Assembly: GCA_035221665.1 (NCBI GenBank)
Contig: CM069160.1
Span: 4,712,001 to 4,776,000 of the forward strand
Source of the DNA: Okamejei kenojei
Lineage: Eukaryota
Reading direction: 5' to 3'
DNA: 64,000 nucleotides
Below, piece after piece: positions 5,309-58,512 of the stretch; within the stretch, counting starts at the first letter, position 1, and every line of letters starts with the position of its first letter. The notes under the pieces were generated by a model. It worked only from the letters and a program-made list of their open reading frames with translations, was not told the origin of the DNA and did no database searches. Both the position numbers and the translations under genes were made by a program.

Positions 5309-7110
5309 GATGATTCCTAGCTGCAGTAATTTGTTGCAGAAATTCATCCATGGCATGATCATATGAATTTGTTAATCTGCAGGTTCTGACCAGACCATTA
5401 CAAGAGCTTGGACTGTCGGATAAGACCATGAATGTTATAACTGCGGCTTGGAGAAATAGAATTTTAAAACAATATTTTGTTTATATAAAGAAATTGGAAA
5501 TCTTTGGTAGACAGTCAAAGTTATTTTATAATACTGCTAACATATCAGATATATTGGAGTTCCTTGTTGGATTGCATTTTATCAGCACCTAAGTGACAGG
5601 GCCATTAATAGGGCTCAGAGTGCTTTATCGTCCTATTTAGGACAAATTGCTGACCAAGAATCTATCGAGGCTCATCCGTTAATATCCGGATATGGAAAGG
5701 AATAAATAAAATCTGCCCAAAGTAGAAATACAGAAGTTGGGAGGTCAGCATAGTTCTTAGTTTTAAAGAAGGAACTGCAGATGCTGGAGAATCGAGGGTA
5801 CACAAAAGGCTGGAGAAACTCAGCGGGTGCAGCAGCATCTAAGGAGCGTCTCTGAAGAAGGGTCTCGACCCGAAACGTCGCCTATCTCCTTCGCTCCTTA
5901 GATGCTGCTGCACCCACTGAGTTTCTCCAGCCTTTTGTGTACCCAGCATAGTTCTTACTTTGCTTGGGCAATGGGCTCCAATTCTATCACTGTGTTGAAA
6001 GTTAACATTTGAAGTAATAAGGCTCATGACTTTAGTATCAGCATTAAGAGTGCAAACGTTGCAAATGTTACGTTAGATTGTATGCATGTAGCTACAGATA
6101 ACATTGGTTTATATGTTTATGACTTTACCAAACAAAGCCGACCAGGAGGAGCTGGAACCAAGGTAACATTTTAAGCATATCCTGTCGACCAAAAAATTGT
6201 GTATGGTGAAGCATTGACTCAATATGTTGAAGTACGCAAGAGTCTCCATGGTGGTGGGACAGCGCTACTTATTACACACACAAACTACATAAAGTATCAG
6301 TACAAACTGATGTTTCTAGATAGTTACATTCTAGATGGTTAAAACAGGTTTGGGAGGAGTAGACATTGAGATGTGAAAAACTCACTCCACTAGGGAGGTA
6401 GATACATCCACGGTAAAGGCACAGGATGGGCCGCTCGATCAATAATTAGAGGCCGTAGGGGGATGTAAAATAAAATTTTCAAAGTACGAGGAACCAGTCT
6501 CACGGTGTCAGGGTTGGACACACGGTGTTGGGTTCTCCTTGATTGTTGCTTTGTTTTATATTATCAATTTATATTATAAATTTATATATTTGCTTATAAA
6601 TTTCCCTTACGATGGAAGGGTTATTACTTTCATTATTTTATAATGAAAAGATTTATTACATAAACTGAAGCAATGTTTAAAAGATGTATTATTTACTCAC
6701 TACTGTGTTGACTGAGTCAGAATGTCGTATGGAATGAATCTACGACATAAAAAACAGAGCTTCAAAATCTTCACGTAGTCATTCACGTGACACCAGTAAA
6801 ATAGTAAGATTAAACGAGAACTTACCAAGCTTGAAGTTTGATCGTTATTTTATGAGGAGTAACGATGAGGGATTACGTGCCCTCCACTCCCAACCCTCAT
6901 AAAATAAATGATCATCTGGTAGTTCTAGTCCATGTTGAGCCTTACTATCTTACTCGGGCTATTTGGTTCTGTGTTTTTCATTCCGCTGCTTTGAAGTATG
7001 CCGATCATGCACCAGGCGGGACTTCTTCACGTAATCCCTCATCGTTACTCCTCATAAAATAACAATCAAACTTCAAACTTGGTAAGTTCTCGTTTAATCT
7101 TACTATTTTA
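5309..7110 (+). mobile_element. 5'-truncated DIRS retrotransposon (degenerate tyrosine recombinase, ICR, right ITR)
   Basis: Colinear with about 11780-13433 of the full copy (e.g. atatgaatttgttaatctgcagg; ctcactccactaggg = HSTR). ICR at about 6768-6879 is complementary to the right end at about 7027-7109. Confidence 0.88.
5760..5943. mobile_element. Penelope-derived palindromic insertion with a 14-bp TSD, inside the DIRS recombinase gene
   Basis: Inverted arms gtacacaaaaggctggagaaactcag / ctgagtttctccagccttttgtgtac, flanked by cagcatagttctta at 5746-5759 and 5944-5957. Confidence 0.8.
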
Positions 7111-7407
7111 CTGCTCTCTATCTCAAGCTGTTTCATACTGCTATGGATGGTAACATTTGTACGTTACATATGCACACAATTTGCAGGCGTTGAGTTCATG
7201 CTCACAGATTACAACGATCCTTTCGCCATTATGGAGCACACTGGGTATATGCTGCAGTGCCTGAGTTCGTGCACAAACACATTTATTTATGCAGTGGCTC
7301 AGGCAAAGTTCAGAGAATCATTGACGAATACGCTGAAATATCCTTTTACTTTATTGAATAGATTAGTTCTAACCTCGGACCAAAGATCAGGTAGCGGTTT
7401 TCAATAA
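7105..7407 (+). pseudogene. 3' remnant (TM6, TM7, tail) of a second GPR139-like GPCR, cut off by a DIRS element
   Basis: Reads (I)LLLSISSCFILLWMVTFV...MLQCLSSCTNTFIYAVAQAKFRE..KYPF, paralogous to the end of the 115-1016 protein. It starts directly at the DIRS right terminus and no 5' part is visible. Confidence 0.85.
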
Positions 7408-10029: not shown

Positions 10030-11876
10030 TATTAAGACTGGCTTACTATTATTTTTGATCAGTATATTACGAGCAGTTTCATTAACTACTATTACTTTTA
10101 AAAAAAAGAGGTTAATCCTCCTGTACAGAATAAACCTGCTTATGTTTCGTGTTTTCTGCAATTGAAAAAGCAGAGATTTTATGTTCACATTGCCTAATTA
10201 TCTGGAAAAGAGGTAATGGAAAAGATTTTGAACACAAGCATAAATTTGTCTTTAATGTTAGAAGGCATTACAGATGATGGTTGCAGAAGTATTCTGGACC
10301 TTACAGGTCTAAATAAGTTTGTAGAATACAAACATGTTCAAATGGAGTCATTGAATACTGCAAAATATTTAATTCAGCAGGTTGTTATATGGCTAAGATT
10401 GATGAAAAGACGCCTATTATTCTGTACCTATGCATCAGGTTTCGGTAGTACTTAAATTTTAATTGGTTGTGACAATTATGGCAGTTAAGCTTTGCCAAAT
10501 GGACTGAGTTCAGCTTTTTACTCTTTACGAAACTGTTGAAACCAGTTTAGCCCAATTAGAGCACAAAATGCACATCATTATGGCTTATCTCAATGACATT
10601 CTGGTCATTAGTGATTATCAGGAGTCAGCTGAGGACTCAGTTTCAGTTACTAAAGCTTTGTGGTAAGCTAAGGTTCTTAATTCATCTAATTAAGCCCCAG
10701 CTGCAGCCAGCACAAACAATTTACTTTTGGGGTTTGTAATTAACTCAGTGACTATGTTAATACCTTTACCAACAGTTAAAGTCGATGATATTTTGGTAAC
10801 TTGTCATTATCTCATTCAAAACCTTATCCTTCCATCCGAGAAATGGTGACAACCATTGGTGAACTGCTAGCAGCATTTCCTGCAGTAGAATTTGGTTCAT
10901 TACATTTATTGATATCTTCGAAGGTACAAGATACAAGCTCTCAAAGAGAAGGCAGGCCATTTGACAGGCCTATGTAATTAACAAAAGAAGCTGTATTGGA
11001 ATTTACAAATGGTGGGTTAAAAAAGGAAAATGTCCCACAAGCTGCTAATAAATATTATGATTAAACAGCCTGAAATGGTTTTACATACAGATGCTAGTGC
11101 TCTCGGATGGGGGGCCACAGATTTATCCTCCAGTTGTGGAGGTAGATGGAAAACTGAAGAACAAGTGTTTCTCCAAGAGTATGGTATTAACTATTTGGAG
11201 TTATTGGGGGCCTTTTATGGGCTTAAAGCATATTGTTGTGCTAAACAAGGTCTGCATGTGTTAATACAATTACACAATAAAACAGCTGTGGTTTACATTT
11301 AATCACATGGGGAGAGTTGGATCAGTATCATGTGATTATCTGGTCAATGAGATATGGCAATGGTGTATTGGTCGGCAGATATGGATTGCAGTAAGCTATA
11401 CTCCAGGTAAAGACAATGTGGTAGCAGATGAAAGGTCCAGGATTTTTAAAGATAATACGGAATGGATATTTAAGCCAGCAATATTTAAGAATATTGTTCG
11501 ACGATTTGGGTTGCCAGAAATTGATTTGTTTGCATCCAGGCTTAATCATCACTTGCCTCATTATGTGTCTTGGGAACACGATCCGGACGCAGTTGCAGTA
11601 GATGCATTTTTATTACACTGGGGAAAAATGTTCTTTTATGCTTTTCCACCATTTGCTCTGATCCAGAGATGCTTGAAGAAAATAGAGCAAGATTCAGCTT
11701 CCGGATTGTTGGTAGTGCCAAATTGGCCAACTCAACCTTGGTTCCCAGTTATGCTGAATATGATTAAAGAACCGTATATGCAGATTCTTAACTGTAGTGA
11801 TATCTTGACTAATCCAGTAACAAATGAAGATTACCCATTATATGCATATATGAATTTGTTAATCTGCAGGTTTTGA
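10030..11876 (+). pseudogene. DIRS pol region (RT, RNase H, DNA N6-adenine methyltransferase-like domain), frameshifted
   Basis: ILDLTGLNKFVEYKHVQMESL and LPNGLSSA (RT); YLND at about 10586 (YLDD with D>N); LHTDASALGWGA and INYLEL (RNase H); IDLFASRLN and FYAFPPF (MT-like). Confidence 0.85.
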
Positions 11877-11879
11877 CCA

Positions 11880-12842
11880 GACCACTACAGGAACTGGATT
11901 GTCGGACCAAACTTGACAGTTATTGGCGCATCATGGCGAGATAGCACACAGAAACAATATATGACACATATTAAGAAATGGAAGAATTTTGCACACAGTC
12001 AAAATTTTTCTGATGATTATGTGAATGTTACTCATGTTTTGGAATTCCTTGCCAATTTGCGCTTTGGCCAACATTTAAGTTACAGTGCCATTAACACTGC
12101 ACGCAGTGCCTTGTCGTCCTATTTAGGACTTATGACTGGTGAGAAATCAATTGGGTCGCATCCATTAATATCACGATTCATGAAAGGAATTTTTCACATG
12201 AATCCGCCAAAACCTAGATATACAGAGATTTGGGATGTGAGCATAGTACTTGCTCTACTTAGAGAATGGACGCCAATTGAAGGGTTGTCATTGGATAGGT
12301 TAACATTGAAATTGGTCATGTTAATGTCACTGGTCTCAGCCAAAGAGTGCAAACTTTACAAATGTTGCGTTAGACTGTATGCATGTGACTACAGATAACG
12401 TTGTATTCTATGTTTACGATCTGATCAAACAAAGTAGACCAGGGAGATCTGGAACAAAGGTAACCTTTCAAGCTTTTCATATTGAGCTTGCTTTGTGTGT
12501 GGTTAGACATTTGAACCAATGTATTAAAGTGACGGACACTTTTCGAGGAAACGAAAAGACATTGCTGCTTACGCACAAAAAGCCACACACAAAAGCTTCA
12601 GTTCAAACTATCTCAAAAATGGTTGAAACAGGTGTTGGTTTTAGCGGGAGTAGACACTGATGTCTTCAAATCTCACTCCACCAGGGCGGCAGCTACGTCC
12701 GCGGCGAAGGGGCGGGACGTACCTCTCGAGCATATTTTTAAAAATCGCAGGGTGGAGTAAAGAAGAAACTTTTTCAAAGTTCTACAACAAACCTGTTCAC
12801 ACTATGACAAGCTTTGGACACGCGGTGTTGGGAGCACTATAA
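11880..12842 (+). pseudogene. DIRS tyrosine recombinase, frameshifted
   Basis: SWRDSTQKQY...SYSAINTARSALS...HPLISRFMKG...WDV; FKSHSTRAAATS and AGWS...F.KFY occur in shifted frames. Confidence 0.85.
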
Positions 12843-15567: not shown

Positions 15568-16346
15568 TACATAGAAACATAGATAATAGGTGCAGGAGTA
15601 GGCCATTCGGCCCTTCGAACCTGCACCGCCATTCAATATGATCATGGCTGATCATCCAACTCAGTATCCCGTACCTGCCTTCTCTCCATACCCCCTGATC
15701 CCCTTAGCCACAACGACCACATATAACTCCCTCTTAAATGGAGCCAATGAACTGGCCTCATCTACCCTCTGTGGCAGAGAGCTCCAGAGACTCACCACTC
15801 TCTGTGTGAAAAAAGTCTTTCTCATCTCGGTCTTAAAGGATTTCCCCCTTATCCTTAAGCTGTGACCCCTTGTCCTGGACTTCCCCAACATCGGGAACAA
15901 TCTTCCTGCATCTACCCTGTCCAACCCGTTAATAAATTTGTAAGTTTCCATAAGATCCCCTCTCAATCTCCTATATTCTAGAGAGTATAAGCCGAGTCTA
16001 TCCAGTCTTTCTTCATAAGACAGTCCTAACATCCCAGGAATCAGTCTGGTGAACCTTCTCTGCACTCCTTCTATGGCAATAATGTCCTTCCTCAGATTTG
16101 GAGACCAGAACTGTACGCAATACTCCAGTTGTGGTCTCACCAAGACCCTATACAACTGAAGTAGAACCTCCCTGCTCCTATACTCAAATCCTTTTGCTAT
16201 GAAAGCTAACATACCATTCGCTTTCTTCACTGCCTACTGCACCTGCATGCCTACTTTCAATGACTGGTGTACCATGACACCCAGGTCTCGCTGCATCTCC
16301 CCTTTTCCTAATCGGCCACCATTTAGATAATAGTCTGCTTTCCTGT
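15568..16346 (-). mobile_element. CR1 LINE 3' fragment
   Basis: ORF 15661..16230 is the CR1 ORF2 C-terminus, nearly identical to the 57334-58512 copy. Confidence 0.92.
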
Positions 16347-20800: not shown

Positions 20801-22139
20801 CCCTGACTATCCCACAGCTCTGGGCCTTCACACACACACTCACTCACACACACACACACACACACTCACCCTCACACCCACTCAGCTACACACCCACCAG
20901 GGTTATAGGCTCAGCACCAGGCCCACAACCACAAAGGATGCACATATCACATGGTCTGACTCAGCTGCATCCTAGTGCTCCCCCCTCCTACAGGGAACCT
21001 CAGTAGTGATGGGTCTTCCCCTTACCCCTCTTTTAATCAGTTTACCCCGACCACACATCCGCTAGTTATAATTCGACGCTGTTCATTATTTTCTTTAACA
21101 GAGGTGCCAGATCGGTGCCCCGGTGAGCTCCGGCAGCACTGCACCCCTGGGTTTAAGGTGAGGAGGAAGATTTAGTAGGAACCCGAGAGGCAACCTTTTC
21201 TACTAAGAGGTTACTGGGTGTATGGAATGAGCTGCCAGAGAAGGTAGAATAACAACATTGAAAAGACACTTGGACAGATACATGGATAGAACATGTTGAG
21301 AGGAAAGTGGGCCAAACATTGGCAAATGTGACTAGCCTAAATGTAGCAGCTTGTTCTGCTTGGAGCATTAGGCGGAAGTACCTGCTTCGGTGCTATATGG
21401 CTCTAAGACTCTTTGTTAGATGATCATAAACATGGCAAATGGAGTTTAATAATGGAAAATATGTGCTCACACACTCTGGTAAGAGCAATTAAAAGGAAGC
21501 TATTATCTAAATGGAGTGAGATTGCAAATGAGTGGAGTACAAGAGATTCAAGTGCTTAAAGTGCAAAAGAAAAGCCAGCAGGTGGACGCAGCATACAACG
21601 CAGAAGGTGATTAGCATATTGGCATTCAAAGGTAGGTTACTATTGTAATTATGGGACATGATGTTGCTAAGGACATATCAGGAGCACTGTGCACAGGTTG
21701 GTCCTCAGATTTAAGAAAGGATATATTAATATTGGATATCACCCAGAAGAGATTTCTGGAATAAGCAAGTGTTGCCTCACCGTGAATGGCTGAAATCACT
21801 GATTCAGTGATCAGTGTCCCTTGGAGATGACAAGAAACAGTTAAACTTATGAATGTATTAAAGAGGTATGATGGGGTGGTGAATTGATGGATCGTGCGTG
21901 GATATATTCTAAAAGAACAGGGAATTGTGTCTTATGTGGAATAAGCACAGTAAAGGGGTTGAGGCCTCAGTCATATCAGCTGTTATCAACATAAATTGCT
22001 AGACAGCTCTAATTTGTACAAATGCAGGGCAGTCTATTGAGAATTTCTGTCATGTTTGATAAACATAATTTAACTCTTTCCATTTTTTTCAGTTCCTGCA
22101 TTTTAATCACATCCATGAAATCTTCTACTCAGCGTTTGG

Positions 22140-22180
22140 TTAGCAGTGCACGTTCTGGTTTGGTTGAATATTTTGATAAT
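22140..22180 (-). CDS. Predicted cytoplasmic-tail exon of the class I gene (DYQNIQPNQNVHC*)
   Basis: Strong acceptor atttccctcctcag in apparently non-repeat sequence 1.9 kb downstream of the TM exon. The phase-1 join gives GAT TAT CAA AAT ATT...TGC TAA. Confidence 0.7.
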
Positions 22181-25100
22181 CTGAGGAGGGAAATTATATA
22201 TTAGACAACTAACAAATGGCAGAGAACAGAACTCAGAAAGATGCAACTTGTTTATTCGCTTTAACTGTTGATCCATCCCACATAACATCTACCTTCCAGA
22301 TATAATGGTACAGGGCCAGACACCCAGGTTTGATCCTGACTACGGGTGATGTCTGTACGGAATTTGTACCTTCTCCCTGTGACTGCATAGGTTTTCTCCA
22401 GGTGCTCCAGTTTCCTCCCACATTCCAAAGACAGACGTGCAGGTATGTAGGTTATTGACTTGTGTCCCTAGATTATGTGGGTGATCGTTGGTTGGTGCGG
22501 ACTCAGTGGGCCGAAATGTCTGTTTCAATGCTCTCTCTCTAAACTAAACAAAAAACTCAATGCTCCTTCAAATAGTTTCGTCCACACAAGTTCTACGTTT
22601 CCAACTTTCGCTTCCTCACTAGGGTCAAATTACAGAGACCAATTAATCCATAAACCCTGGCATATTTGGTATGTGTGTGGAAACTGGAGTACAGTGGAAA
22701 CCCATGCGGTCATGGGGAAAACATGCAAACTTCACACAGCCGACAACCGAGGTTAGGATTGAACTGATGTCTCTGACGCTCTGAGGCAGCAGCTCTATCA
22801 GCTGCGCCACTCATGTTCAGCACAAACGTTGTTGGACGACGGACCTGTTCCTCTATTACAGGGGCATTCCCATGCACCGTAGAATTCAGCGACTCCGCAA
22901 CATTGGGTCACTGGAAGTATTCCCTGCCTGACGATCAGATCACATTGAAATGCCTCCAGATCAGTCGGACAGACACCAGTTAGGCAGCATCTGCCTGCAA
23001 ATGATTCATGTCCCTCCAACCCCTGCATCTCCATGCACCCAGGAAGGTGCACACCAAACGCCACCATCCCTGGCAGTGCTTCCCAGGCACACACCACATA
23101 GAGTGTAATAAAAACCTGCCCTTTTTTTAAAACTGCAGCTTCTACCCTGTACTGAATATAATGCAATAAGTTAAATGTCATAGTAGGCATTTAGTTAATT
23201 GGGATAATTTTAGTCAATTGGGAGGTGTGATTGCAAATCCTATACAATATCATAAACCAAGTAAAATGTGACAAAGTCAAAATGGCCCGGCACAAAGAAC
23301 AGAATATTCATGAACATCGATAACATGTCAAGGTACTGAATAAAACAGTTGGGATGTTCTGCTACAGTTGTACAAGATGTTGGTGCGGCCGCATATGGAG
23401 TATTGCGTTAAGTGTTGGTCACTCCACTATCGGAAGGATGTCATTAACAGGCCTGAGATTCAGGGAGAGGATGGGCACGCTTGGACTTTATTCTTTGGCA
23501 TCCAAGTGGCTGAGGGATGATCATATAGAGGTTTATAAAATCAAGGGGAACAGATAGATTGAATGCACGGAATCTTTTAACCAGCCTTGTGTAATCAAGA
23601 ACCAGAGGACTTAGGTTTAAGGTGAGAAGGAAACGAGTTATTCGGAACCATAGGAAGTGGAAATATGGAACATTCCAGGGGAAGGAGTCGAGGCAGGTAT
23701 TAAAAAAGCATTTAGAACACACTTGGACAGGTACAAGTATAGTTTAATTGACCACTGTAAATTGCCCTCAGTAGGTGGGTGACTGGATGAGAATGTGCAA
23801 TAAGATAGAATTCATGAGAACAGGTGGTTGGTGGTTCGCATGGACTCAGTGGGCCAAAGGGACTGCTTGTATGCTGTACCTTTCGATGATATCTCTAGGA
23901 TTTGGTGCAGTGAATCCATAATGCCTACCTATTTATGTGACTCTGAATTCACAATTTTCAAATATCTGATTATCAAAAACATTTAACAACAGCACAAAGG
24001 CTAGTTGACAGTGGTGACTGGCGAGGCATTTCAGGTGTAGCTGCTGCCTTACCCTACTTGAGATCAATCATTTCTTCAAGCCCAATACATCATTAGCAAC
24101 CGTGCATCACAGTGTTTCCATCTTACCTCTCCTCTTTTTTCTCCACCAAACAATTACTACCAAGACAATAGCCAGTAATATCAGCACACACACGGCAATA
24201 AGGCCTATGTGCCTGTCTTTCTTCCTATTTCCTTCTGAAAAATAAGAATGCATCATTTTTTACAAATCAATTGTTAAGCTGTGCATCTAAATAGATTGGC
24301 ACTGTCTGAAGACTTCAGGATGAAGAAGGGTCTCGACCCGAAATGCCACCTATTCCTTTTCTCCAGAGATGCTACCTGACCGCTGAGTTACTCCAGCATT
24401 TTGTGTCTATCTTTGGCGCTTTTCAAGGTATATAAATATGTTGTTTTGAATCATGGAGTTCTGCAGCATGGCAAAGGGACAATATCTGTTCTGTACAACT
24501 GTATGATCTATGGGACCATCACAGCCACAACTTAATTCAAGAAAGAAGGTGAATTGAAAGCAGAAAGCTTTAACCCTATATCACCGAACATCTGTTTTGG
24601 GGAAAATGCTGGATATTTAATATGCTGAACATTTAATGCTGAACATTTAATAATAACAAAATAATAAAGTGCATTAACAGGGCATTAATGGGAAAATTCT
24701 AGAAAGAAAGAGATGCAGATACTGATTTACACAAAAGCATTAGTTTAGTTTTTTGTCACGAGTATTGAGGTACAGTGGAAGGCTTTTGTTACGTGTTAAT
24801 CAGTCAGTGGAAAGAATATACATGATAGACACAAAATGCTGGAGTAACTCAGGCAACATCTCTGGCGAACATGTACTCAGTCAGAAGGATTGTGACCCGA
24901 AACATCAGCTATTTCTTTTCTCCAGAGATGCTGCCTGACCAGCTGAGTTATTCCAGCAATTTGTGTCCATCTATCTCCCTACACATGGACAGTTGACATT
25001 TCGTTTTGGGACCCTTCTTCAAACTTTGTTTGAGAAATTGATTAGAATTCTTTGAAAATGCAACAGGAACCCGCAGACAATGTATATTCGAGCAGCAGTA

Positions 25101-28100
25101 GTTTGCAGGTGTGCACAGCCTAAAATTCAAAAACAAAATGATGGAAAAGCAGAATAGGTAACAAAATTGGAATGAGAAACAAAATAAATACGATATATTT
25201 GCACGGGTTATTGATAGGGGACGATCAGCCATGATCACAATGAATGACGGTGCTGGCTCGAAGGGCAGAATGGCCTCCTCCTGCACCTATTTTCTATGTT
25301 TCTATGTTTCTAAAATGTAGAGGTCCAAGCGTCGTGAACAAATCAATGTTTTTTTAAGATAAACTGTTTCGGCACACTCGCGTTTAGTAAGGATTTGCGC
25401 AACGTTCCTGCCGTTGTAATCGGGCACACAAGAAGGGTCTCGACCCGAAACGTCGCCTATCTCCTTCGCTCCTTAGATGCTGCTGCACCCGCTGAGTTTC
25501 TCCAGCCTTTTGTGTACCCCCAGTTGACTGACGACTGACTCATCATCAACTCCTTCCAAAACCCTGTCACATGATAGTCCCAGGGTACACAAAAAGCTGG
25601 AGAAACTCAGCGGGTGCAGCAGCATCTAAGGAGCGAAGGAGATAGGCGACGTTTCGGGTCGAGACCCTTCTTCAGACTAATAATTAGCATGAATGGAAAA
25701 ACATGATAGTCCCAGCTCCCCTGACGAGGGTTCTAGCAATAAGTGGTCTGACCACCAGATGTCGCCAGAATATCTTGAGTTTCATAAGATATCTGATCAA
25801 GTGATGCAAAGGCACGTGGCTTATGACATTGGGGGTAATAATTAGCATGAATGGAAAAACAATTAAGAGCAAGCAGTGATTTGTCTTAAAGGAGTGTTCA
25901 GGTTGGGAAACGGCAACTGCAGGTTGGGAATCAATGCACGAAAGTGAACTACTTATCGTTGGCATTAAGAGCAGGTGAAGGGACTGATGGTGCTGTAGCC
26001 TAGATTGCTGATGATAGATAGATAGGTTGGAAATTAAGTTTCGGAGTATGTCAACAGTCTTCAGAGTGAAACATCAGATTCCTTAGTTGTGCATTGTTCG
26101 AGAGAATCTTCAAAAGTGAGCATTTGTGTAGGTTAGTGCAGCATACCTGGAATCAAATTGGTACGATCACTGTTTGTCAGGCAGTTATATTTTTCGTTGC
26201 AGAAGCTGTAACTTGCGTCACGGAACTTACTTCATTAGGTTTCGTTTTATTAATGTCAGATGTTTCAAGATACAGTGAAAAGGTTTTTTTTTTGCATGCT
26301 ATCCAAACAAATTAGATACTACACATAAATACAAATTCAAAAACAATAGATAGAGCAAAGAGGAGGATACAGAGTACAGAATATAGTTCTCAACATTGTA
26401 TCGCATCAGTTCCACAGACAATATTCAATGTGTTATGAGGTTGAGGTGAATCGGGCATTAAACATACATTCTGGAAGGACACTTCCGAAGCCTGATAACA
26501 GATGGAAAGGGGGTGTTCCTGAGTCAGGCAGTGCATATTTTTAACTTTCTGTACCTATTGCCTGATGGGAGCAGGAAGGAGGAATGACCGGGGTGGGATA
26601 AGGCTCGTTTTCCAAGGCAACCAGGTGTAGATTGAGTCAATAGTAGGAAGTCTGGCCTGTGTGATGATCTTTAACTCTGTGTATATTCTTGCAGTCTTGG
26701 GCAGTGCAGTTCCCAAATCAAGATGTGATGCAACTCACAACATGCTTTCTCAAGCGGCATCTGTAGATGTTTGCTGGAGTCACCAGAGACATGATGAATA
26801 TTCCCAGTCTCCTGAGGAAGTAGATGTGCCGGTGTGCCTCCTTGGCTATGTGGTCAGTCCATGACAGAATATTGGATGTATTCATGCCAAGGAACATGAA
26901 GCTCTCAATCATTTGCACTTCAGACCATTGATTCGGATTGGGGCATGTGCTCCCCCAGTGCCTTGCTGTTAATCACATCATGAGGAAAGATTATTTTTTT
27001 TATTTAAACGTACCTTTCATGGATTTCAGTTCCACCACTGAGAATCCCAAATACTCCTTCCTTGTATATCAGTTATTTATTTACTTTTGATAAATTTTCT
27101 GTTGACAAAGTCTTCTGCTCAAGTGGAGAGTGGGTGCTGATTATGTGATTGCTTAGAGCAACACCACTAAACAAATAAAGTTTAAGCATCTTGGAATATG
27201 GGATGTAGTCACAATGATTAAAATGGAAACAACAGAAGATAATGATTATCTACTAAATAATATTTAATGTTCTTACCCCAGATGATGGTCTTCCCACCGG
27301 GCAGGCTGCTGTGATCGACATGACAGGAATACTGTTTCCCATCATACGGATCATACTCAAGGACAGACGTTAGATGATATGTTCCATCGTTGTTGGGTAT
27401 GACCCCAGAAGATTTGGTCTCAGAGACATGTTGACCATTCTGCAACCAGCTGACATTGATAGCCGGTGGGTAAAATCCAAACACAGTGCAGTACAGGACT
27501 GAACGATCATCAGGGCGGGCAGTGAGAGTGACCTCAGGGGAAACTACAAGACAGTAAGTTGGTTATTTTCACCTTTAGTAAAACTTGCACAGTCACTCAC
27601 CACGAAATATTATTCAGTCTACTACAACCACCAAGTTACTGTCCACATCTGCCCCATTTTGCCTCTTTCATCACCATCAACCAACCACGTGGTTTAAAAG
27701 GGATCGCACGCTCCCTGTTAAGACAGTACACAAGAAAGTTTGAAAGCACGTACCATTAAATTCAGGAACACCTTCTTCCCCACTGTTATTGGACTACTGA
27801 ATGATTCTCATGTAAGATAAGGTGTTGCCCTGATCTTCCAACCAATCTCATTGTGATCCTTGCAACTCTTTTTGATCTGCACTTTCTCTGTAACTGTAAT
27901 GCTATGACATTGTAATTCTGCACTCTGAATATTGTTCTCTTTGCACTGTTCTACCTGTGGATGGCTTGATTGCACATGTGTAGTATGATATGATTGGATA
28001 ACACACAGACAAACTTTAGACTATATCTCAGTTCATGTGACAATAATAAACTAATTCCAACGGCAAATCTTTTCACTGCGGCACATTATTGATAATAATA

Positions 28101-31100: not shown

Positions 31101-34100
31101 TCCAGTTGCTTCCCAAATACAAAAGACATGCAGGTTAATTGGCTTTTGTAAATTGTCCCTAGCTTGTAGGACAGAAATAGTGAATGGGCAATTGCTGGTC
31201 AGTGCAGACTCAGTGGCCCACAGGTCCTGTTTCCATACTCTATCTCTAAACTAAATCAAAACTAATCTCCACTGCCTGCATGTGATCCATATCCGTGTAT
31301 TCGCTGCATATCCACGAGCCTGTCCAAAGCCTTCTTAAGCACCATTATCATGTCCTCCTCTACCACCACTCCTGGTAGCGCATTCTAGGTATCAAGCTCT
31401 CTCTGTGCAAAATAACACTTGACCTGCACATCTCGTGTAAATGTTGCCCTTTGAAGCTTAACGCTATGCTCTATAGAGATGTGTGATAGAGATGCAATCG
31501 TATTAGGGGCTGTCAAACGTGGTCAAGAAAATCCATGGTTAACTAATATGAAAGACATCAATTACACTTTCTCCCTGTCAAACAGGGATGTAATGCTGAG
31601 GTTCTATAAGGCACCGGTCAAGCCACATTTGGAGCATTGTGAGCAATTGTGGGCACCATATCTGAGGAAGGATGTGCTGGCTCTGGAGAGGGTCCAGAGG
31701 AGGTGTACAAGAATGATCCCAGGAATGAGTGGGTTAACATATGATGAGCATTTGATGGCAGTGGACCTGTACTCGCTGGATTTTAGAAGAATAAGGAGGG
31801 ACCTCATTGAACCATACCAAATAGTGAACGGCTTTGAGAGAGTGGATGTCTCCACTGGTGGGAGAGTCTACGACTGGAGGTAATTGTCTCAATATTAAAG
31901 GACATTCTTTTGGGAAAGAGATGAGGAGGAATATATTTTGTCAGAGGGTGGTGATCCTGTAGAATTATTTGCCACAGAAGGCTTTGGAATCCGTCAATGG
32001 ATATTTTTAAGGCATAGATGGATTCTTGATTAGTATGCAAGTCAGGGGTTATGGGGAGAAGGCAGGAGAATGGAGTTAGGAGGGAGAGATAGATCAGCCA
32101 TAATTGAATGGCGGAGTAGACTTGATGGGCCGAATGTTCTAATGCTGCACCCATCACTTATGACCTTATGACTCAGTTGGTTTCCTCCATGTGATCCAGT
32201 TTTGTTCCATATACCAAAAACGTGCCAGTGAGCTAGTCAGACATTGCAAATTATCCATAGTGGAACTGAGTGAACAGAGAATCCGAGGGAGCTGAGTGCA
32301 AGTTGTGAGAGAGAGTTGTGGAACAGTTCGTCGACATTGCATTGAAAACTAGCATAGACTCAATGGGCCGAATTACCTTTCCCTCTGTCATGATTGGGTC
32401 AGAGATAATATTACTCATTGCCTCAAAAACAGTGAAATATTACTAATTGCCTACCATCACAAAACAACATCCTTTGTTCTGAACTCACCTTCTCTGGTCA
32501 GGTATGTCTTTCCAATTGCGTAGTATGTATGCCATAGATCCACACAGTCATTTTCTAACAAGCTCTTGAAATAACGGTTCATTTTTTCATTCTTGTCCCA
32601 TTTCTCTTTGAAGGTCTCAGCTATTGGGTCATGCACCGTCCACTTTAGTTTGTCTTTATCAAAACTAAATGCATCTCTTCCATCAAAAGCCAACTTCAAT
32701 ATCCCTACATTGGGACTGTGATCGCTCACCTCACAACCAAACTGTCCTTGAACATAATGATAATCTGAAAGAAAAACAAAATCATTATTTGATTCATTGT
32801 TATGACTGGGGTCATTTCTGAACACCAGGGTCCAAGTCATTTATATATGTCGCAAGTAGCAAGGGTCACAGGACAGACCCCTGCAGAACTCTACTTGTCA
32901 CTGAACGACAGTCTGAATATTCGGCCTTCCATGCAACTGTAGAGACCATATTATTGTACGGGTGTGAGGCATGGACTCTCACTCCAGCACTGTCCAAGTC
33001 TCTCGATGGTACCTACATCCGAATGCTCAGAATAGTTCAAAATGTCAGTTGGAGGGACCACATCACCAACGCCCAGCTCTATGGGGAGACTCCACCTCTG
33101 ACCGAGAAGATCACGTTGAGCAGGATGAGGCTCGCAGGTCACTGGCTCCGCCACCAAGAAATGCCAGCAAACAAGGTTGTGCTGTGGGGACCCACCCATG
33201 GAAGACGAGACCTGGGTCGGCCAATCAAGATGATGCTGAAGATGTTTATGGAAGACCCACCTGTAGAGATAGAAGAGGAGCTTGCCAGCTGCATGGAAGA
33301 CAGAGATGTGTGTTGCTCCGTCATCGTGCCAGTCAAAAACCAGCATGGCACTAATGTTTTCGACGATTATTATTATTATTATCATCATCATCCACTACAC
33401 CCCTCTGTCCTGGGGATTTATCCACATTTCCCTTCAAGTGACCCAACATCTCCTTCTTGCTTAACTTCAAAGTGCCCCTGCATGTTAGCATTCTCCACAT
33501 TGATTCTCCATGTGTAAGAAAGAACTGCAGATGTTAAAATCGAAGGTAGACACTAAATGCTGGAGTAACTCAGCGGATCAGGCAGCTTCTCTCGATAGAA
33601 GGAATGGGCGTCGTTTTGGGTCGAGACCCTTCTTCAGACTGATGTCAGGGGAGGGACAAAGATAAGAGTGTAGGCGGAGACAGTAAGACTGGTGGGAGAA
33701 TTGGGAAGGGGGAGGGGACGGAGAGAGAAATCAAGGGCTATCGAAAGTTATAGAAGTCAATGTTCATACCGCTGGAGTGTAGACTGCCCAAGCGAAATAT
33801 GAGGTGCTGTTCCTCCAATTTGTGCTGGGCCTCACTCTGACAATGGAGGAGGCCCAGGACAGAAACATCAGATTGGAAATGGGAGGGGGAGTTGAAGTGC
33901 TGAGCCACTGGGAGATCAGGTAGGATAAGATGGACTGAGCGGAGGTGTTCAACAAAATGATCGCCGAGCCTGCGCTTGGTCTCGTCGATGTACAGAAGAT
34001 GACAACGGAAACAGCGGATACAGTAGATGAGGTTGGGGGAGGAGCAAGTGAACATCTGCCTCACCTGGAAAGGCTTTGGGTCCTTGGATGTAGTCGAGGG

Positions 34101-37100
34101 CGGACGTAAAGGAACGGTTGTTGCATCTCCTGCGGATGTAGGAGAAAGTGTCTGGGGAGGGGGTGGTTTGGGTGCGAAGGGACGAGTTGACCAGGGAGGT
34201 TCGGAGGGAACGATCTCTGCGGAAAGCAGAAAGTGGTGGAGATGGGAAGATGTGGCCAGTAGTCGGATCCTGTTGCAGGTGGCGAAAATGTTGGAGGATT
34301 ATATGCTGTACTTACTATTAAAAGTCCTTGCTTTTCTCCATGTCTTTCTTGGTGAAACCAAATGCAAAGTATGGGGGATGGAGGAAACTTTTTCTAATCT
34401 CTTACCTCGATGTAGATGACATTTTTTTTTCCGTATCTTATCTCCGTCCACACTGAAGCCTAACATCGAGGTGTTGGCGGCCTTTGCATTTTTTTAGTGT
34501 GACTGTATTGTAATCTGAATTTAATTGCACCTTAATTTGTACATGTGACAATAAGCTGACCTTGAGATATTGAAAAAGATGAGGGATTTTCTGTAATCTG
34601 ACTCGCCAAAGCCACTTTGTGGCCTCTTTTGGCCCCTTTAGTTTTAAGCTTTTGAGATACAGTGCAGAAACAGGCCCTTCAGCCCACACTAAGGACAATT
34701 TACATTTATTCTAAGCCGATTTACCTACATACCTGTACGTCTTTGGAGTGTGGGAGGAAACCGAAGATCTCGGAGAAAACCCACGTAGTCACGGGGAGAA
34801 CGTACAAACTCCTTACAGACAGCATCCGTAGTCAGGATGGACGGCGGGTCTCCAACGCTGCAGGTGCTGCAAGGCAGCAACTCTCTAGCTGTGCCACCCT
34901 CTAATCACACACTTGAGTTATTCCCTCCTTTCTTTACATTCCTCAAAGCTCCTGCCTGATTCCATCCTCCTGAACCTTACATGCACTTTCTTTTTTTTTC
35001 TTTCTAATTAAATTTAAAACCTTTTTGGTTATGCAAGCTTCCATTCCTTTGCCATTGCCATCCTTCCTCACACTGGAACTGGTGATTAAATAACTCATAC
35101 ATAAGTCATGGGAGTCACGGTAACAGGACATTGTAACAGGGCATCGTAACATATGCATGTCCATTCCACCTGTGCTTATAATGCAGAATACTTCCTACTT
35201 TCAATGGGATTTTCTGCCAATAATATAAACCACCTGATTGCCACATGCATGAAGTCAACACAATTTAAGAAAGACAAAAGAAAGACAAAAGAAAGACACC
35301 AGAAGCTGGAGTCACTCAGCATCTCAGGTGAAAAGGAATGTGACATTTTGGTGGCAGGTGTGATAGAGGTCGCAACCAGAAACATCACCTATTCCCTTTC
35401 TCCAGACTTGCTGCCTCACCCACTGACTCCAGCTTTTTGTGTTAATCTTCGGTTTCAATCAGCATCCGCAGTTCCTTCCTAAAATTAAGAAAGACACAAA
35501 ATGTTGGGGTAACTCAGCCGGTCAGGCAGCATCTCTGGATAGTGCACCGGCTACGATCTTTCGGTCCATCTGCTTGCCGTTTCCTAGGAAACTGTTCCTT
35601 ATTAACCTGTTCAGTGTCACCCCCGGGTATACTCAGGTCATGGCCAATTGTGAAATAAAAACGTGGCAGTCAACAGGTTAACAAGGTGTGGACAGAGTGT
35701 GGGGACTTCAGTGCAAGTCTTTGATCCAAGACCAGGTGAGAGGGAGGGGGGAGAGAGAGGTGGGAGAGAGAAGGGGGAGAGAGAGAAGAGGGGAGAGAGA
35801 AGGGGGAGATGGGAGTATGGGGTTCATTTTCCCCACACAAGCCATAGGGGACTGGGTAATCCGAACCCAAGCACCAAGTTGAAAGCGGCCGATGGTGCTC
35901 ATCCCTCGGTTCAGCCCCCACCCTCCGCATGCTGTGGAGCGGAGATGTGGGACAATGTTCATCCGTTCACAGTGATGTGATGGACTCCTCCTGGGTGGGC
36001 AACACCTGTATAGCAGGCTTTTTTGAGGGTTGTGCCCTCCCCCTGCACTGCTGCCTTTTTGGTGTCATCTCTAAAACACGTCTCCTCTGCAAAAAGCTCT
36101 CAGCTATGAATGAACATGCCTTGGTGTGAAAGAGGTGACATTCTGCTGTTTAAATTACCTTTTTTTCCACTGACCTTTCTTTCACCCCGGAGCACCCCGT
36201 AGTGGCGACTGCAGGGGGTTCGGGGCTCGGGGAGGCCCCGACCACGGGGGAACATTGTGGAACATCAGGGGAAGAGACTGACTTTGGTGCCTTCCCTCAC
36301 AGTGGGAAATTTTGATCCTGCTGTGGGGGATGTTTTATGTTGATTCCTATCTACTCCATGTTGTGTTCTTTATTTTAATGTATGGCTGTATGGTGATTTA
36401 ATTACGCTGTGCCAATTGGCACACGTGACAAATAAATGCATCTTATCTTATCTTATCACAAAATTCTAAAAGGACTGGACATGCTAGATGCAGGAAAAAT
36501 GTTCCCAATGTTGGGCGAGTCCAGAAGCAGGGGCCACACTCTTAGAATGCAGGGGAGGTCATTTAAGACCGAGGTGAGAAAAAAACCTTTTCATCTAGTG
36601 TTGTGAATTTATGGAATTCCCTGCCACAGAGGGCAGTGGAGGCCAATTCACTAGATGGATTTAAGAGAGAGTTAGATAGAGCTCTAGGGGCAAGTGGAGT
36701 CAAGGGATATGGGGAGAAGGCAGGCACGGGTTATTGATCAGCCATGATCACAATGAATGGCGGTGCTGGCTCGAAGGGCCGAATGGCCACCTCCTGCTCC
36801 TATTTTCTATGTTTCTTTGTTTATATTACTTCGACTACCTACGACTAGCATCACGACCGACTACAACCGGCTTCGACTAAACCTACGACTAAAAAAATAT
36901 TAGATTTTTCCCACGGCGACCTATTTTTAGTCGCGGTCAACTTTTAACATTTTGAAAAATACGCCACGACCTAGCTGAACCCTCGACTACGCGGAGACCA
37001 CTCTCGACCATGAAGGAGAGTGACAAAGACCTCCTACGACCTCGTGGCGACCTTGCCGGGACTATGGGCCGCGGGCAAACTTGCCAGAGGTCGCGGTGGA

Positions 37101-40100: not shown

Positions 40101-40673
40101 TTTTGTGTCTGTGCTGTAAACCAGCATCTGCAGTTCAATCCTACACATCTACAGTATGTTATCCACATTCTCACCCAACGAGCACAACGAGAACAATTTA
40201 CAGAGCCCAATTAACCTACAAACTTGCACATTTACACGATATAGGACAAAACTGGAGCACCTGGAGGAAATATGTGTGGTCACAGGGAGAACGTGTAAAC
40301 TTGCTCGAGGTCAGGATCTAACCTGGATCTCTGGCACAGCGAGGTATTTCTGAGAGATTTTTTTATTAACATTGATCACAATCCAAATTTATTCAAATGA
40401 ATGAACTAACTTGTTGTTTCGTTATGCCTCCGCATCCACTCGTCGACTTGCCCTTTGATGATTCCATGGAAACCATTTTCGGAAACCGTATTTGTTACCC
40501 AGTATCTCCTGTCAAATGCAGCCGCCATCCATTTCTGTCTTGGAACTGTAATGGCCATGTTTTTGTCATAATACTGTATCTCACAACCGTCCAGAACACC
40601 CACCACACTATATTCTGGTAGATGAGTACTCCCGTGGTTCAGGGTGTAGTAATAGATCAGTGTGTGTGAGGCC
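22140..40673 (-). CDS. MHC class I-like heavy-chain gene, nonclassical-looking; leader exon not securely located
   Basis: Five exons with GT-AG boundaries, joined in phase 1 from alpha1 onward: 40673-40411, 32764-32489, 27543-27277, 24234-24127, 22180-22140. Domain order is alpha1-alpha2-alpha3(C1-Ig)-TM-cytoplasmic. Confidence 0.92.
23340..23735 (+). mobile_element. Degenerate CR1 fragment (intronic)
   Basis: LVRPHMEYCV...LGLYSL...TRGLRFKV remnants in mixed frames. Confidence 0.75.
24127..24234 (-). CDS. MHC class I connecting peptide / transmembrane exon
   Basis: 108 nt, phase 1-1. EGNRKKDRH-IGLIAVCVLILLAIVLVVIVWW-RKKRR. Boundaries tttttcag / gtaaga. Confidence 0.88.
26460..26920 (-). mobile_element. 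Rex1/L2-type LINE fragment (intronic)
   Basis: ESFMFLG...LSWTDHI.K.AHRHIYFLRRL...NIYRC...SCIT in ORF 26718..26918. Confidence 0.7.
27277..27543 (-). CDS. MHC class I alpha3 (C1-set Ig) exon
   Basis: 267 nt, phase 1-1. VSPEV...LYCTVFGFYPPAINVSW...PNNDGTYH...YSCHVDHSSL...IW. Boundaries cttgtag / gtaag. Confidence 0.95.
28955..29248 (+). mobile_element. tRNA-derived SINE (HE1-like)
   Basis: ggcagcacagtggggcagcgg (A box), gttcaatcc (B box), LINE-derived 3' tail ending ctaaa. Confidence 0.75.
31580..32172 (+). mobile_element. CR1 fragment (intronic)
   Basis: [36 protein letters not shown] in ORF 31479..31883, plus the CR1 3' UTR. Confidence 0.85.
32489..32764 (-). CDS. MHC class I alpha2 exon
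   Basis: 276 nt, phase 1-1. HYVQGQFGCE...AFDGRD...KEKW...ENDCVDLW..Y with the C101-C164 pair. Boundaries ctttcag / gtgagt. Confidence 0.93.
32925..33390 (+). mobile_element. RTE-clade LINE 3' fragment
   Basis: LYGCEAWTLT...RMLR...VSWRDHITN..LY...RMRLAGH..RH...GRP followed by a (TAT/CAT)n tail. Confidence 0.8.
33511..34310 (-). mobile_element. Penelope-like element 3' part: GIY-YIG endonuclease and pseudo-LTR
   Basis: ORF 33738..34064 FTCSSPNLIYCIRC.RC.LLYI(G>D)ETKRRL.D.F.EH...VAQHFN, followed by the CTGAAGAAGGGTCTCGACCC repeat. Confidence 0.88.
34645..34900 (-). mobile_element. tRNA-derived SINE (HE1-like)
   Basis: Reverse complement of the SINE body (tcctgactacggatgctgtctgt...ctcccacactccaaagacgtacagg). 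Confidence 0.78.
36458..36820 (+). mobile_element. CR1 3' fragment
   Basis: KILKGLD.LDAGKMFPML...WNSLPQRAVEA plus the 3' UTR and tttctatg tail. Confidence 0.82.
38545..38742. repeat. Near-perfect ~200-bp palindrome made of two inverted Penelope pseudo-LTR ends
   Basis: ttgaagatggacacaaaatgctggagtaactc...cttcttcag|tctgaaagaaggg...gagttactccagcattttgtgtctatcttcaa. Confidence 0.85.
38882..39107. mobile_element. MITE with GGGCCTGTCCCACTT TIRs (PIF/Harbinger-like)
   Basis: gggcctgtcccactt ... aagtgggacaggccc. Related ends occur near 37110, 38415, 46194-46438, 56670 and 56940. Confidence 0.7.
40411..40673 (-). CDS. MHC class I alpha1 exon
   Basis: ASHTLIYYYT...LPEYSVVGVLDG..IQYYD...VPRQKWM...YW...RRHNETT, with the conserved N86 glycosylation site. 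Acceptor tgtctag, donor gttagt. Length 263 nt, so entry is in phase 2. Confidence 0.9.
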
Positions 40674-43070: not shown

Positions 43071-45153
43071 AAAACTAAAGAACCTATTTTACATATCTCA
43101 CTTCTCTTTGGTTCAAGCAGTGACTCTCTCTGGTATAATCTGCTTGATAGTCATTTTCAGTGCTTATTCTGGCTAATAGAGATAGCAACATGAAAACCAC
43201 AGAAATAATCTTAAAATAAACTGAATCATGCAGCATATAAACAGGCCCTTTACCCAATCTTGTCTATGCTGGACCGAGATGTTTATGCCGAGCTGCATTT
43301 ACATGAATTATGCCCTTATCCCTCCCTGATGTTCCTACCAAAAGTCCAAATGTTTTATAGACATTGTGATTATGTCTGCCTCGACCATCTCCCCTGCAGC
43401 TCATTCCAGATAAACTACTGCGGGTGAGACATGTCTGACCTCAGATCTCCTTGACTGTTCTCTCTCCATCACGTGTTAAACTCCAGTTCTAGTCTCCACT
43501 GCCCTGGGAAAGAGTTACTCTCTATCCTAACTTATACCCCAAAGATGGCTAGACACAAAATGCTGGAGTAACTCAGTAGGGTAGGCAGCAAACTCTGGAG
43601 AGAAGGAATGGGATGATGTTTAGAAACGTCACTCATTCCTTCTCTCCAGTGATGCTGCCTGTCCTGCTGAGTCTTTCTCCCAGCATTTTATGTTCTGTCT
43701 TCGGTGTAAACCAGCATCTGTAGATCCTTCCTGAAGATATGTCTCAACTGATTAAAAAGGGTCTCTTGAGCCGAATGCGTCACTAATTCCTTCTCTACAG
43801 TGATGCTGCCTGTCCACTGAGTTACTCCAGCTGTTTGTGTCTTTCTTCGGTTTAAACCAGCTTCGGAATACCCTTCCGACACTACAGTATCTATTAGCCC
43901 TCATTATTTCACTCCTGCATTCCAGTGAGAATAAAATGCAGCCTATCAAATCTCTTCACATAACAACAGACCTTTATTCAGGCAAACAACCTGGCAAAAC
44001 CCTTTTGCACTATTTTTGATGGCATACATCCTTTTAGTTTAGAGATACATTGCAGAAACAGGCCCCTTCGGCCCACAGCCGACCAGTGGATCCCGCACAG
44101 TAATTAGTAGTGGAGCGGACCAGAACTATACCACAACACTCCATGTGCAGGGGGGGCCTTTTTTAAAAATAAAAAACCAAAAATTTTTCTTGGGTTTTTG
44201 TTTTGTTTGATTTTCTCAATACTCATATACTGGATGACTGAGTCTATTCTAAGTTGTTACAGGGCCCCTGGTGAGACAGCACCTGGAGTATTGTGTGCAG
44301 TCTTGGTCTTCCTCCGTTTGGAGAAGGACATCTTGCTATTGAGGGAATGCAGCAAAGTTCACAGGAAGGTTAATTCCCGCGGGATGGTAGGGACTGACAT
44401 TATGGTAAAATAATGAATCAAACTGGGCTGTATTCACTGGAATTCAGAAGGATGATGAGGGGATCTTATTAGAAAAAACTGAAACTATAAGGGATTTGAA
44501 CTGGCTAGATGCAGGAAAACTAAAGGGACATTTAGGATTGAGATGGGGGAAACTTTTCAGCCGAGTGTTGTGAATCTGTGAATTCTCTGCCACAGAAGGA
44601 GAGTGGAGGACCAATTACTTATGTATTCAAGAGAGAGTTAGTTTAGGGGTTAATGGATCAAGGGATATGGGGTGAAAAGCAGGAACGGCTGGTACTGGAT
44701 TCTGGTTGATCAGCATGACCATATTGATATGTTGGTGCCGTGGCTTGAAGGGCCCAATCGGCCTACTCCTGTGCCGTATTTTATATGTTTTTATGTCTAA
44801 GCGGAAAAGATGCAAAGTGCATTCTTTGCTTTCCTGATCTACTTGTTGGTGGTTTTCAGGTAACTATGAACTGAAAACCCAAGGACATAAACAGGCCGAT
44901 AGCACCAATTCACACATGTTGGTATTACATTCCTTCTGTATTGCTCCATGCAGCTCTCTAGATAATTGTATCCCACTGTATCCATAGCAACCTTCTTGAA
45001 CGTTTATGAATCCCTAATGTATTAGTCATCTACAACTAGTAATTCAACCCACCATAAACACCACCACACAACACACCCCATCCACCCCCCAGCTCATACT
45101 TTACCTCCCTCATTACTCACTGTCCACACGAGTGATCTGCCCCCCACTCACAT

Positions 45154-45653
45154 NNNNNNNNNNNNNNNNNNNNNNNNNNNNNNNNNNNNNNNNNNNNNNN
45201 NNNNNNNNNNNNNNNNNNNNNNNNNNNNNNNNNNNNNNNNNNNNNNNNNNNNNNNNNNNNNNNNNNNNNNNNNNNNNNNNNNNNNNNNNNNNNNNNNNNN
45301 NNNNNNNNNNNNNNNNNNNNNNNNNNNNNNNNNNNNNNNNNNNNNNNNNNNNNNNNNNNNNNNNNNNNNNNNNNNNNNNNNNNNNNNNNNNNNNNNNNNN
45401 NNNNNNNNNNNNNNNNNNNNNNNNNNNNNNNNNNNNNNNNNNNNNNNNNNNNNNNNNNNNNNNNNNNNNNNNNNNNNNNNNNNNNNNNNNNNNNNNNNNN
45501 NNNNNNNNNNNNNNNNNNNNNNNNNNNNNNNNNNNNNNNNNNNNNNNNNNNNNNNNNNNNNNNNNNNNNNNNNNNNNNNNNNNNNNNNNNNNNNNNNNNN
45601 NNNNNNNNNNNNNNNNNNNNNNNNNNNNNNNNNNNNNNNNNNNNNNNNNNNNN
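45154..45653. other. Assembly gap (exactly 500 N; true size unknown)
   Basis: Run of N. The round length suggests a scaffolding placeholder. Confidence 0.98.
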
Positions 45654-57114: not shown

Positions 57115-57333
57115 GTAAGATCTTCTCTTCACCAAGTCTCTGCTCAACCGTTTTAGTGACTTTCATAGAGTCATACAGAAACAGGCCCTACGGCCCAACG
57201 TGCCAATGCTGACCCACATATCCTATCTGCACTATTCCCACCTGCCCACACTGACCCACATGTCTATAGAAAATAGGTGCAGGAGTAGGCCATTCGGTCC
57301 TTCCAGCCAGCACCGCCATTGAATCTGATCATA

Positions 57334-58512
57334 CGACAAGGTCCCACATAAGAGATTAGTATACAAACTTAAAGCATACGGTATTAGGGGTTCAGTATTG
57401 ATGTGGATAGAGAACTGGCTGGCAAACAGGAAGCAAAGAGTAGGAGTAAACGGGTCCTTTTCACAATGGCAGGCAGTAACTAGTGGGGTACCGCAGGGCT
57501 CAGTGCTGGGACCCCAGCTATTTACAATATATATTAATGATCTGGATGAGGGAATTGAAGGCAATATCTCCAAGTTTGCGGATGACACTAAGCTGGGGGG
57601 CAGTGTTCGCTGTGAGGAGGATGCTAGGAGACTGCAAGGTGACTTGGATAGGCTGGGTGAGTGGGCAAATGTTTGGCAGATGCAGTATAATGTGGATAAA
57701 TGTGAGGTTATCCACTTTGGTGGCAAAAACAGGAAAGCAGACTATTATTTAAATGGTGGCCGATTAGGAAAAGGGGAGATGCAGCGAGACCTGGGTGTCA
57801 TGGTACACCAGTCATTGAAAGTAGGCATGCAGGTGCAGCAGGCAGTGAAAAAAGCGAATGGTATGTTAGCTTTCATAGCAAAAGGATTTGAGTACAGGAG
57901 CAGGGAAGTTCTACTTCAGTTGTACAGGGTCTTGGTGAGACCACACCTGGAGTATTGCGTGCAGTTTTGGTCTCCAAATCTGAGGAAGGACATTATTGCC
58001 ATAGAGGGAGTGCAGAGAAGGTTCACCAGACTGATTCCTGGGATGTCAGGACTGTCTTATGAAGAAAGACTGGATAGACTCGGTTTATACTCTCTGGAAT
58101 GTAGGAGATTAAGAGGGGATCTTATAGAAACTTACAAAATTCTTAAGGGGTTGGACAGGCTAGATGCAGGAAGATTGTTCCCGATGTTGGGGAAGTCCAG
58201 GACAAGGGGTCACAGCTTAAGGATAAGGGGGAAATCCTTTAAGACCGAGATGAGAAAGACTTTCTTCACTCAGAGAGTGGTGAGTCTCTGGAACTCTCTG
58301 CCACAGAGGGTAGTTGAGGCCAGTTCATTGGCTATATTTAAGAGTGAGTTGGATGTGGCCCTTGTGGCTAAGGGGATCAGAGGGTATGGAGAGAAGGCAG
58401 GTACGGGATACTGAGTTGGATGATCAGCCATGATCATATTGAATGGCGGTGCAGGCTCGAAGGGCTGAATGGCCTACTCCTGCACCTAATTTCTATGTTT
58501 CTATGTTTCTAT
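57334..58512 (+). mobile_element. Young CR1 LINE, 5'-truncated, RT C-terminus still open
   Basis: ORF 57398..58414 with SGVPQGSVLGP and FADD; (TTTCTATG)n tail. Confidence 0.95.

Follow-up and report, generated by a model that had tools for sequence, protein, structure and literature searches.

A conserved membrane-near YxxPhi motif in the tail of the elasmobranch nonclassical MHC class I molecule UGA as a probable sorting signal

To our knowledge CD1 is known from amniotes only, and the question of when the presentation of lipids began, and with it the routing through endosomes, is therefore an open one. CD1 tails carry tyrosine-based motifs, given in the accessible part of PMC5002281 as YQNI, YQDI and YQGV in human, YEGI and YEDM in marsupials, YQDI in crocodilians and YEDV in lizard. 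The human CD1b tail RRRSYQNIP and its binding of AP-2 and AP-3, which the original prediction had taken as its point of comparison, are confirmed in the published passages available, where YQNI of CD1b binds AP-3 while the CD1c signal (YQDIL) binds AP-2 and not AP-3. AP mu subunits read membrane-near YxxPhi signals in short tails (PMC2133128, PMC5297682, PMC10235903, PMC2199866). According to the excerpts of these papers, mu-subunit binding requires Y and Phi, Val in the Phi position is merely tolerated by mu2, and mu3A is said to prefer an acidic residue preceding the Tyr (PMC2133128), and the LAMP1 signal depends on its spacing from the membrane (PMC2199866). In elasmobranchs, two class I lineages, UFA and UGA, are described as CD1-like and as binding lipids comparable to those of CD1d, in a personal communication cited in the available part of a 2025 review (PMC12562908). 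UFA corresponds to the lineage of PDB entry 8GM8, and shark UGA is represented by PDB entry 9CH4, a March 2026 release under the title 'shark nonclassical MHC CLASS I, UGA'. The UGA lineage, its structure and the signal type are therefore already known, and since the group that solved the structure may have noted the tail, the advance made here is modest. A description of the UGA tail was not found in the literature searched, which was mainly open-access and did not include the original publication on UFA and UGA, and the passages searched of PMC13262535 and PMC13337447 hold nothing on UGA or UFA.

The window analysed here is a stretch of 64,000 nucleotides of Okamejei kenojei (contig CM069160.1, positions 4,712,001 to 4,776,000), and the class I gene in it lies on the minus strand. 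From its 5' end, the alpha1 exon (263 nt, 40411..40673) is followed by the alpha2 exon (276 nt, 32489..32764, PF00129), the alpha3 exon of the Ig C1-set (267 nt, 27277..27543, Pfam PF07654 with E 2.3e-20) and an exon of 108 nt for the connecting peptide and TM helix (24127..24234), at the end of which stands the basic stop-transfer sequence RKKRR. A phase-1 GT-AG intron of 1946 nt (22181..24126) separates the latter from the tail exon, whose coding part, (D)YQNIQPNQNVHC and a stop, occupies 22140..22180. UGA genes have six coding exons with a single tail exon carrying tail and 3' UTR, a layout of CD1 type which is also that of MR1. An assembly gap of 500 N lies at 45154..45653, and the likeness of intron 1 to that of an intact copy of the gene, described below, stops at 44150. 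On the plus strand, the window also holds a GPR139-like GPCR gene (48-1013) and a fragment of another (7105-7353), and in Leucoraja UGA models (P0003, P0021 and P0022) read through into such a GPCR. Segments at 11265-12395 (+), 15661-16233 (-), 33738-34298 (-) and 57329-58411 (+) are retroelement remnants, which by their motifs we take to be DIRS-like, CR1/L2-like and Penelope-like.

The window gene of this skate is orthologous to UGA, a nonclassical class I molecule of sharks. Both its alpha1 exon (E 3.6e-37, next match 7e-10) and its alpha2 exon (E 1.8e-34, next match 6e-14) have 9CH4 as top PDB match, and so do the orthologue of Amblyraja (P0023, E 8.6e-118, next match 4.4e-48) and that of zebra shark (P0042, E 6.7e-170), which falls in the same clade. 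The predicted structure of the skate protein P0029 (pLDDT 89) superimposes on 9CH4 with a TM score of 0.95 and an rmsd of 1.4-1.5 A; an earlier fold computed from 16 sequences (pLDDT 56) was too poor for geometry. In a tree of 56 rows, from which four rows were removed by the trimming rule and which included no CD1 sequence, 20 UGA-like proteins of sharks and rays lie on one side of a branch with support 100/99, separate from the sister, UDA-like and classical-type clades; the window exons stood outside this tree and are represented in it by skate orthologues that are 86-94% identical. The label UDA-like is tentative and given by sequence features. With regard to a possible MHC linkage, for which class I genes served as the markers, UGA shares its contig with UFA, UDA-like, sister-lineage and classical-type class I genes. 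The skate protein is 57-58% identical to 9CH4 over 267 residues, and differs from it in that the crystal construct is tailless, whereas the tails of rays and skates continue for 8-9 residues beyond the motif, up to a terminal Cys. Skates are also multi-copy, with four UGA copies in this genome and at least nine records in Rhinoraja, in contrast to the accessible text of the review, which describes UGA as single- or low-copy (PMC12562908). As the gene is UGA, of a lineage reported to be CD1-like, the case for a sorting signal is stronger than could be known when it was first proposed.

That proposal depends on one splice. The 3' end of the TM exon (24234-24127, minus strand) reads AGA G/GTAAG, and the acceptor AG of the tail exon lies at 22182-22181, preceded by 11 pyrimidines among 13 bases, and fails a strict polypyrimidine filter. 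Joined in phase 1, the two exons translate as RKKRR-DYQNIQPNQNVHC with a TAA stop at 22142-22140, and YQNI is encoded at 22167..22178 with its Tyr as tail residue 7 past the TM helix. Taken alone, a motif reached through the choice of an acceptor proves little, since 28 (3.6%) of the 777 AG dinucleotides from the donor down to position 12000 yield YxxPhi within six codons. The identical junction is found in the RefSeq models P0023 (Amblyraja) and P0025 (Leucoraja) as well as in three Logan contigs, 1435-3455 nt long and each coding for the full 334-aa protein; because this protein covers more than 18 kb of genomic DNA here, contigs that hold it whole must be spliced. The same tail exon is present in P0023, P0025, P0029-P0031 and the three other copies of this genome, and two shark models, P0049 and P0058, in which the TM exon is skipped, join alpha3 to D-Y-N-x-V and so fix the same exon start. 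Acceptors near 19534, the alternative named when the junction to 22181-22182 and the reading RKKRR-DYQNI were proposed, would give VADSISYSHYWIEYILF or DSISYSHYWIEYILF, and such a tail is absent from all homologous tails compared. Contigs of four runs compared with 21450-22300 do not reach the tail exon and hence speak neither for nor against the junction. By homology, the TM-tail splice and its reading can thus be regarded as real and settled, as the original prediction had it. The skipping of the TM exon in the RefSeq isoforms P0049 and P0058 is a separate observation, pointing to a possible soluble UGA.

Conservation of the motif, scored as Y..[LIVMF] no more than 12 residues from the TM helix, was likewise borne out in other rays and sharks. 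It is present in 35 of 50 UGA records, which are non-independent in that nine are Rhinoraja paralogues (four further records without TM were dropped), and by genus in 14 of 16, comprising all seven genera of rays and skates and seven of nine of sharks. The 15 UGA records without it include five read-through models of Leucoraja, three models of Pristiophorus (all of that genus), three of Rhincodon (one reading YSLT, one without the exon), two Pristis paralogues, one Hemitrygon paralogue and one Heptranchias isoform. None of 11 tails of the UGA sister lineage (one record dropped) and none of 37 of other elasmobranch class I (11 dropped for lack of TM or tail) has the motif, giving 0/48 for elasmobranch non-UGA class I tails combined, and among unnamed class I representatives it occurs in 6 of 93, a further 49 having been dropped, at a chance expectation from composition of about 5%. 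Hence a functionless chance reading, for which the 3.6% of nearby acceptors that yield such a motif could be cited, is hardly credible in the face of 14 of 16 genera against 0/48 control tails. The same verdict applies to a dead locus, against which stand the spliced full-length contigs and an intact genomic copy with an identical tail, although the window copy itself has a frameshift and yielded no leader exon, and two further copies are rich in indels. For the UGA lineage, chance and a dead locus are thus largely refuted, which does not extend to the window copy.

Within the window copy, the alpha1 exon has an extra CA in the CA run at its start (263 nt vs 261 nt in the intact copy), a +2 frameshift which in the frame set by the leader leads to an early stop (PHTH and stop), and no nearby acceptor restores the frame. 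Neither the window nor the 10 kb beyond it yielded a leader exon for this copy; a genome-wide search returned at least one leader exon, that of the neighbouring copy on the plus strand. The four UGA copies of this genome lie inside about 320 kb, and the neighbour in question (G000:C30, about 4836800-4866600, +), about 100 kb away from the window copy, is 97-99% identical to it (~98%), with gap-free coding exons and the same tail. The two remaining copies (L002/L021 and L003/L004) have dense indels, which are typical of unpolished sequence and may be assembly noise. An intact open reading frame is accordingly found in the neighbour, which is likely the working gene in this assembly, and not in the frameshifted, leaderless window copy, which would be either a disrupted duplicate or a haplotype that was assembled incorrectly.

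The sequence variants of the motif provide further information about what is constrained. Across UGA it reads YQNI, YQTI, YENI, YESI, YNTV, YNIV, YNVV, YNVI or YNAV, so that Y and Phi only are constant. In rays and skates the motif is YQNI, YQTI, YENI or YESI, after which the tail runs on for 8-9 residues and ends in Cys, and this terminal Cys is kept in all 22 ray and skate records with a tail exon. In sharks, YNTV, YNIV, YNVV, YNVI or YNAV forms the C-terminus of the tail, as in zebra shark, which ends in GYNVI. The Tyr lies at tail position 6-8 from the TM helix, and is preceded by an acidic residue in most records; a Gly is not general there, the residue being D, A, E or G. The exact YQNI occurs in 5 of the 35 motif records, all of rajid type, in addition to this genome, and Rhinoraja UGA has YQTI. 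Acylation of the Cys in the TM helix, which the original prediction had also considered, did not hold up: S-acylation takes place on the cytosolic side, and this Cys is in the half of the helix that faces the lumen and is missing from most shark orthologues, which makes acylation there unlikely.

Signalling offers a different function for the same Tyr. The Grb2-SH2 consensus is pY-x-N, and YQNI and YENI match it, from which the original prediction had derived a possible Grb2 site. This did not survive the comparison, with Asn at +2 in only 10 of the 35 motif records and 4 of 14 genera, as against Phi at +3 in all 35, as the definition demands, and in 14 of 16 genera. The Tyr could alternatively correspond to the phosphorylation and cross-presentation tyrosine of classical class I, as classical-type tails carry GYNP[AT] on the exon that follows the TM exon, likewise in phase 1, and the tail tyrosines of CD1d are described in the available passages of PMC11481681 as phosphorylatable and signalling-competent. 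Classical tails, however, have A or T at +3, and shark UGA tails end directly after Phi. A Tyr that serves signalling in either way and not AP sorting is therefore judged highly improbable. The classical-type tails do bear on the origin of the motif: their GYNP[AT] lies at the same phase-1 position, with its Tyr as the sixth codon of the exon where that of UGA is the second, and the UGA Tyr may have been co-opted from this exon.

With Y and Phi fixed, the middle positions free, and the motif placed near the membrane in a short tail, the pattern fits recognition by AP mu subunits, and we estimate at roughly 0.7 the probability that the UGA tail is a working AP-adaptor sorting signal, as far as can be judged from conservation of the sequence. 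UGA with beta2m would reach the cell surface, where the YxxPhi tail would likely bind the mu subunit of AP-2 and possibly that of AP-3, and UGA could then be internalised and cycle through endosomes in the manner of CD1b-d, such that its likely lipid-binding groove could exchange ligands there. As YQNI of CD1b binds AP-3 and the YQDI of CD1c does not, the depth to which UGA would be routed cannot be read from the motif. Similarity to CD1b-d, as these are described in the excerpts consulted, is found in the short basic tail, its own last exon and the membrane-near YxxPhi, with YQNI identical in rajid skates. UGA differs from CD1b in that it keeps Y7, Y59, K146, W147 and Y171 and in that its tail runs 8 residues beyond the motif. 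The shark form x-Y-N-x-[VI], terminal and six to seven residues from the TM helix, resembles the (G)YxxPhi type of LAMP1, an unrelated protein whose GYQTI includes the YQTI of Rhinoraja UGA, with the difference that the motif of ray UGA is non-terminal, 8-9 residues short of the C-terminus. Within fish class I, the tail of Atlantic cod with YQPL and a dileucine is described in the accessible part of PMC3760826 and represents an independent gain of YxxPhi; in contrast to UGA, whose motif is common to sharks and rays, these are U-lineage peptide binders with young motifs at the level of species.

Inheritance from CD1 is another way to explain the tail, in which UGA would be a true CD1 orthologue and the motif would descend from the jawed-vertebrate ancestor. 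The ray form Y-[QE]-[NTS]-I does resemble amniote CD1 tails, as far as the excerpt of PMC5002281 shows them, the six-exon layout and the short basic tail are those described for CD1, and the review, in its available text, argues from UFA and UGA that CD1 originated about 500 My ago (PMC12562908). The ectodomain does not single out CD1: its identity with CD1 chains is 19-24%, and other class I molecules are at least as close. By sequence, CD1 ranks behind MR1 and classical class I, with no CD1 chain among the 60 best PDB matches listed, an absence from the top Foldseek and phmmer matches that is in itself no proof of difference; UGA scores 74-84 bits with PF00129 and no more than 30 with PF16497, under the cut-off of the latter; and fold Z-scores are nearly tied (ZAG 24.1, chicken CD1-1 23.9, HFE 23.9, H-2Kd 23.7, CD1d 22.3). 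Neither sequence nor fold thus places UGA nearer to CD1 than to the remaining class I molecules. The shark form YNx[VI] is similar to the GYNP[AT] exon of classical class I, and the passages seen of a 2023 paper, in which UFA is mentioned as unpublished, call its CD1 orthology hard to assess. Descent of the tail from CD1 is therefore unlikely. Because YQNI is confined to rajid skates and other rays and sharks differ, and because the YQTI that LAMP1 shares with Rhinoraja and the independently gained YQPL of cod show that such signals converge, the exact identity with CD1b has likely arisen by convergence under a single functional constraint. What stood of the endosomal sorting signal proposed at the outset, as convergent or ancestral, is therefore the conserved YxxPhi with CD1- and LAMP-like spacing in a class Ib gene; an ancestral identity of the tetrapeptide did not stand, with YQNI in 5/35 records and YNx[VI] in sharks.

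The groove of UGA is less clear-cut than its tail. With positions taken to follow HLA-A2 numbering, all 19 UGA sequences have Y159 replaced by L, W167 lost, T143 lost and F/L123 replaced by A, I or V, so that four of the ten positions of the peptide-anchor set are replaced throughout, five (Y7, Y59, K146, W147 and Y171) are mostly kept and R84 is variable. Mean groove hydropathy (KD) is 0.65 in UGA vs 0.11 in 16 classical-type sequences (range -0.52 to 1.01); the UGA groove is thus moderately hydrophobic only and overlaps the classical-type range. The highest mean among the groups compared, 1.35, is that of the sister lineage.

Among elasmobranch class I tails examined, YxxPhi is restricted to UGA, and hence a trafficking trait is added to the lipid binding reported for this lineage. 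UFA, on the same contig as UGA at a separate locus and 27% identical to it, is likewise reported to be CD1-like, but its coding sequence stops after a hydrophobic stretch, leaving no cytoplasmic tail, in the models of Rhinoraja, Stegostoma and Scyliorhinus (P0092, P0126, P0136) and in this genome (L009:2068-2151; G000:C30 about 8383470-8383550, minus strand), and its C-terminus looks like a putative GPI signal. Tailed UGA and tailless UFA suggest a division of labour. Whether elasmobranchs run a CD1-style, compartment-divided lipid presentation, in which UGA with a YxxPhi tail inherited from a common ancestor with CD1 would sample late endosomes, and tailless UFA and the motif-free sister lineage would remain on the cell surface or in early endosomes, is doubtful on present evidence; if true, the split between UGA and UFA or the sister lineage would parallel that between CD1b-d and CD1a.

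The sister lineage, unnamed and present in sharks and rays, encodes TM and tail on one exon and lacks YxxPhi. In this genome it has four copies with alpha2 94-99% alike (L005-L007 and L011-L014; G000:C30 near 3.85, 4.12, 4.38 and 7.00 Mb). An assignment of this clade to UFA was rejected, P0101 having no match to 8GM8 at E<=1e-38 and UFA being another family. The three RefSeq models of UFA fuse an upstream class I gene to it. In stingray and devil ray, the RefSeq chains P0059-P0065 (476-1391 aa) contain several class I units each, through read-through or as a real tandem arrangement. Finally, the UDA-like tails of P0096, P0099, P0119, P0121 and P0124 end in E-x-x-K-M-L-V or similar, which we take to be a possible dileucine-type signal.
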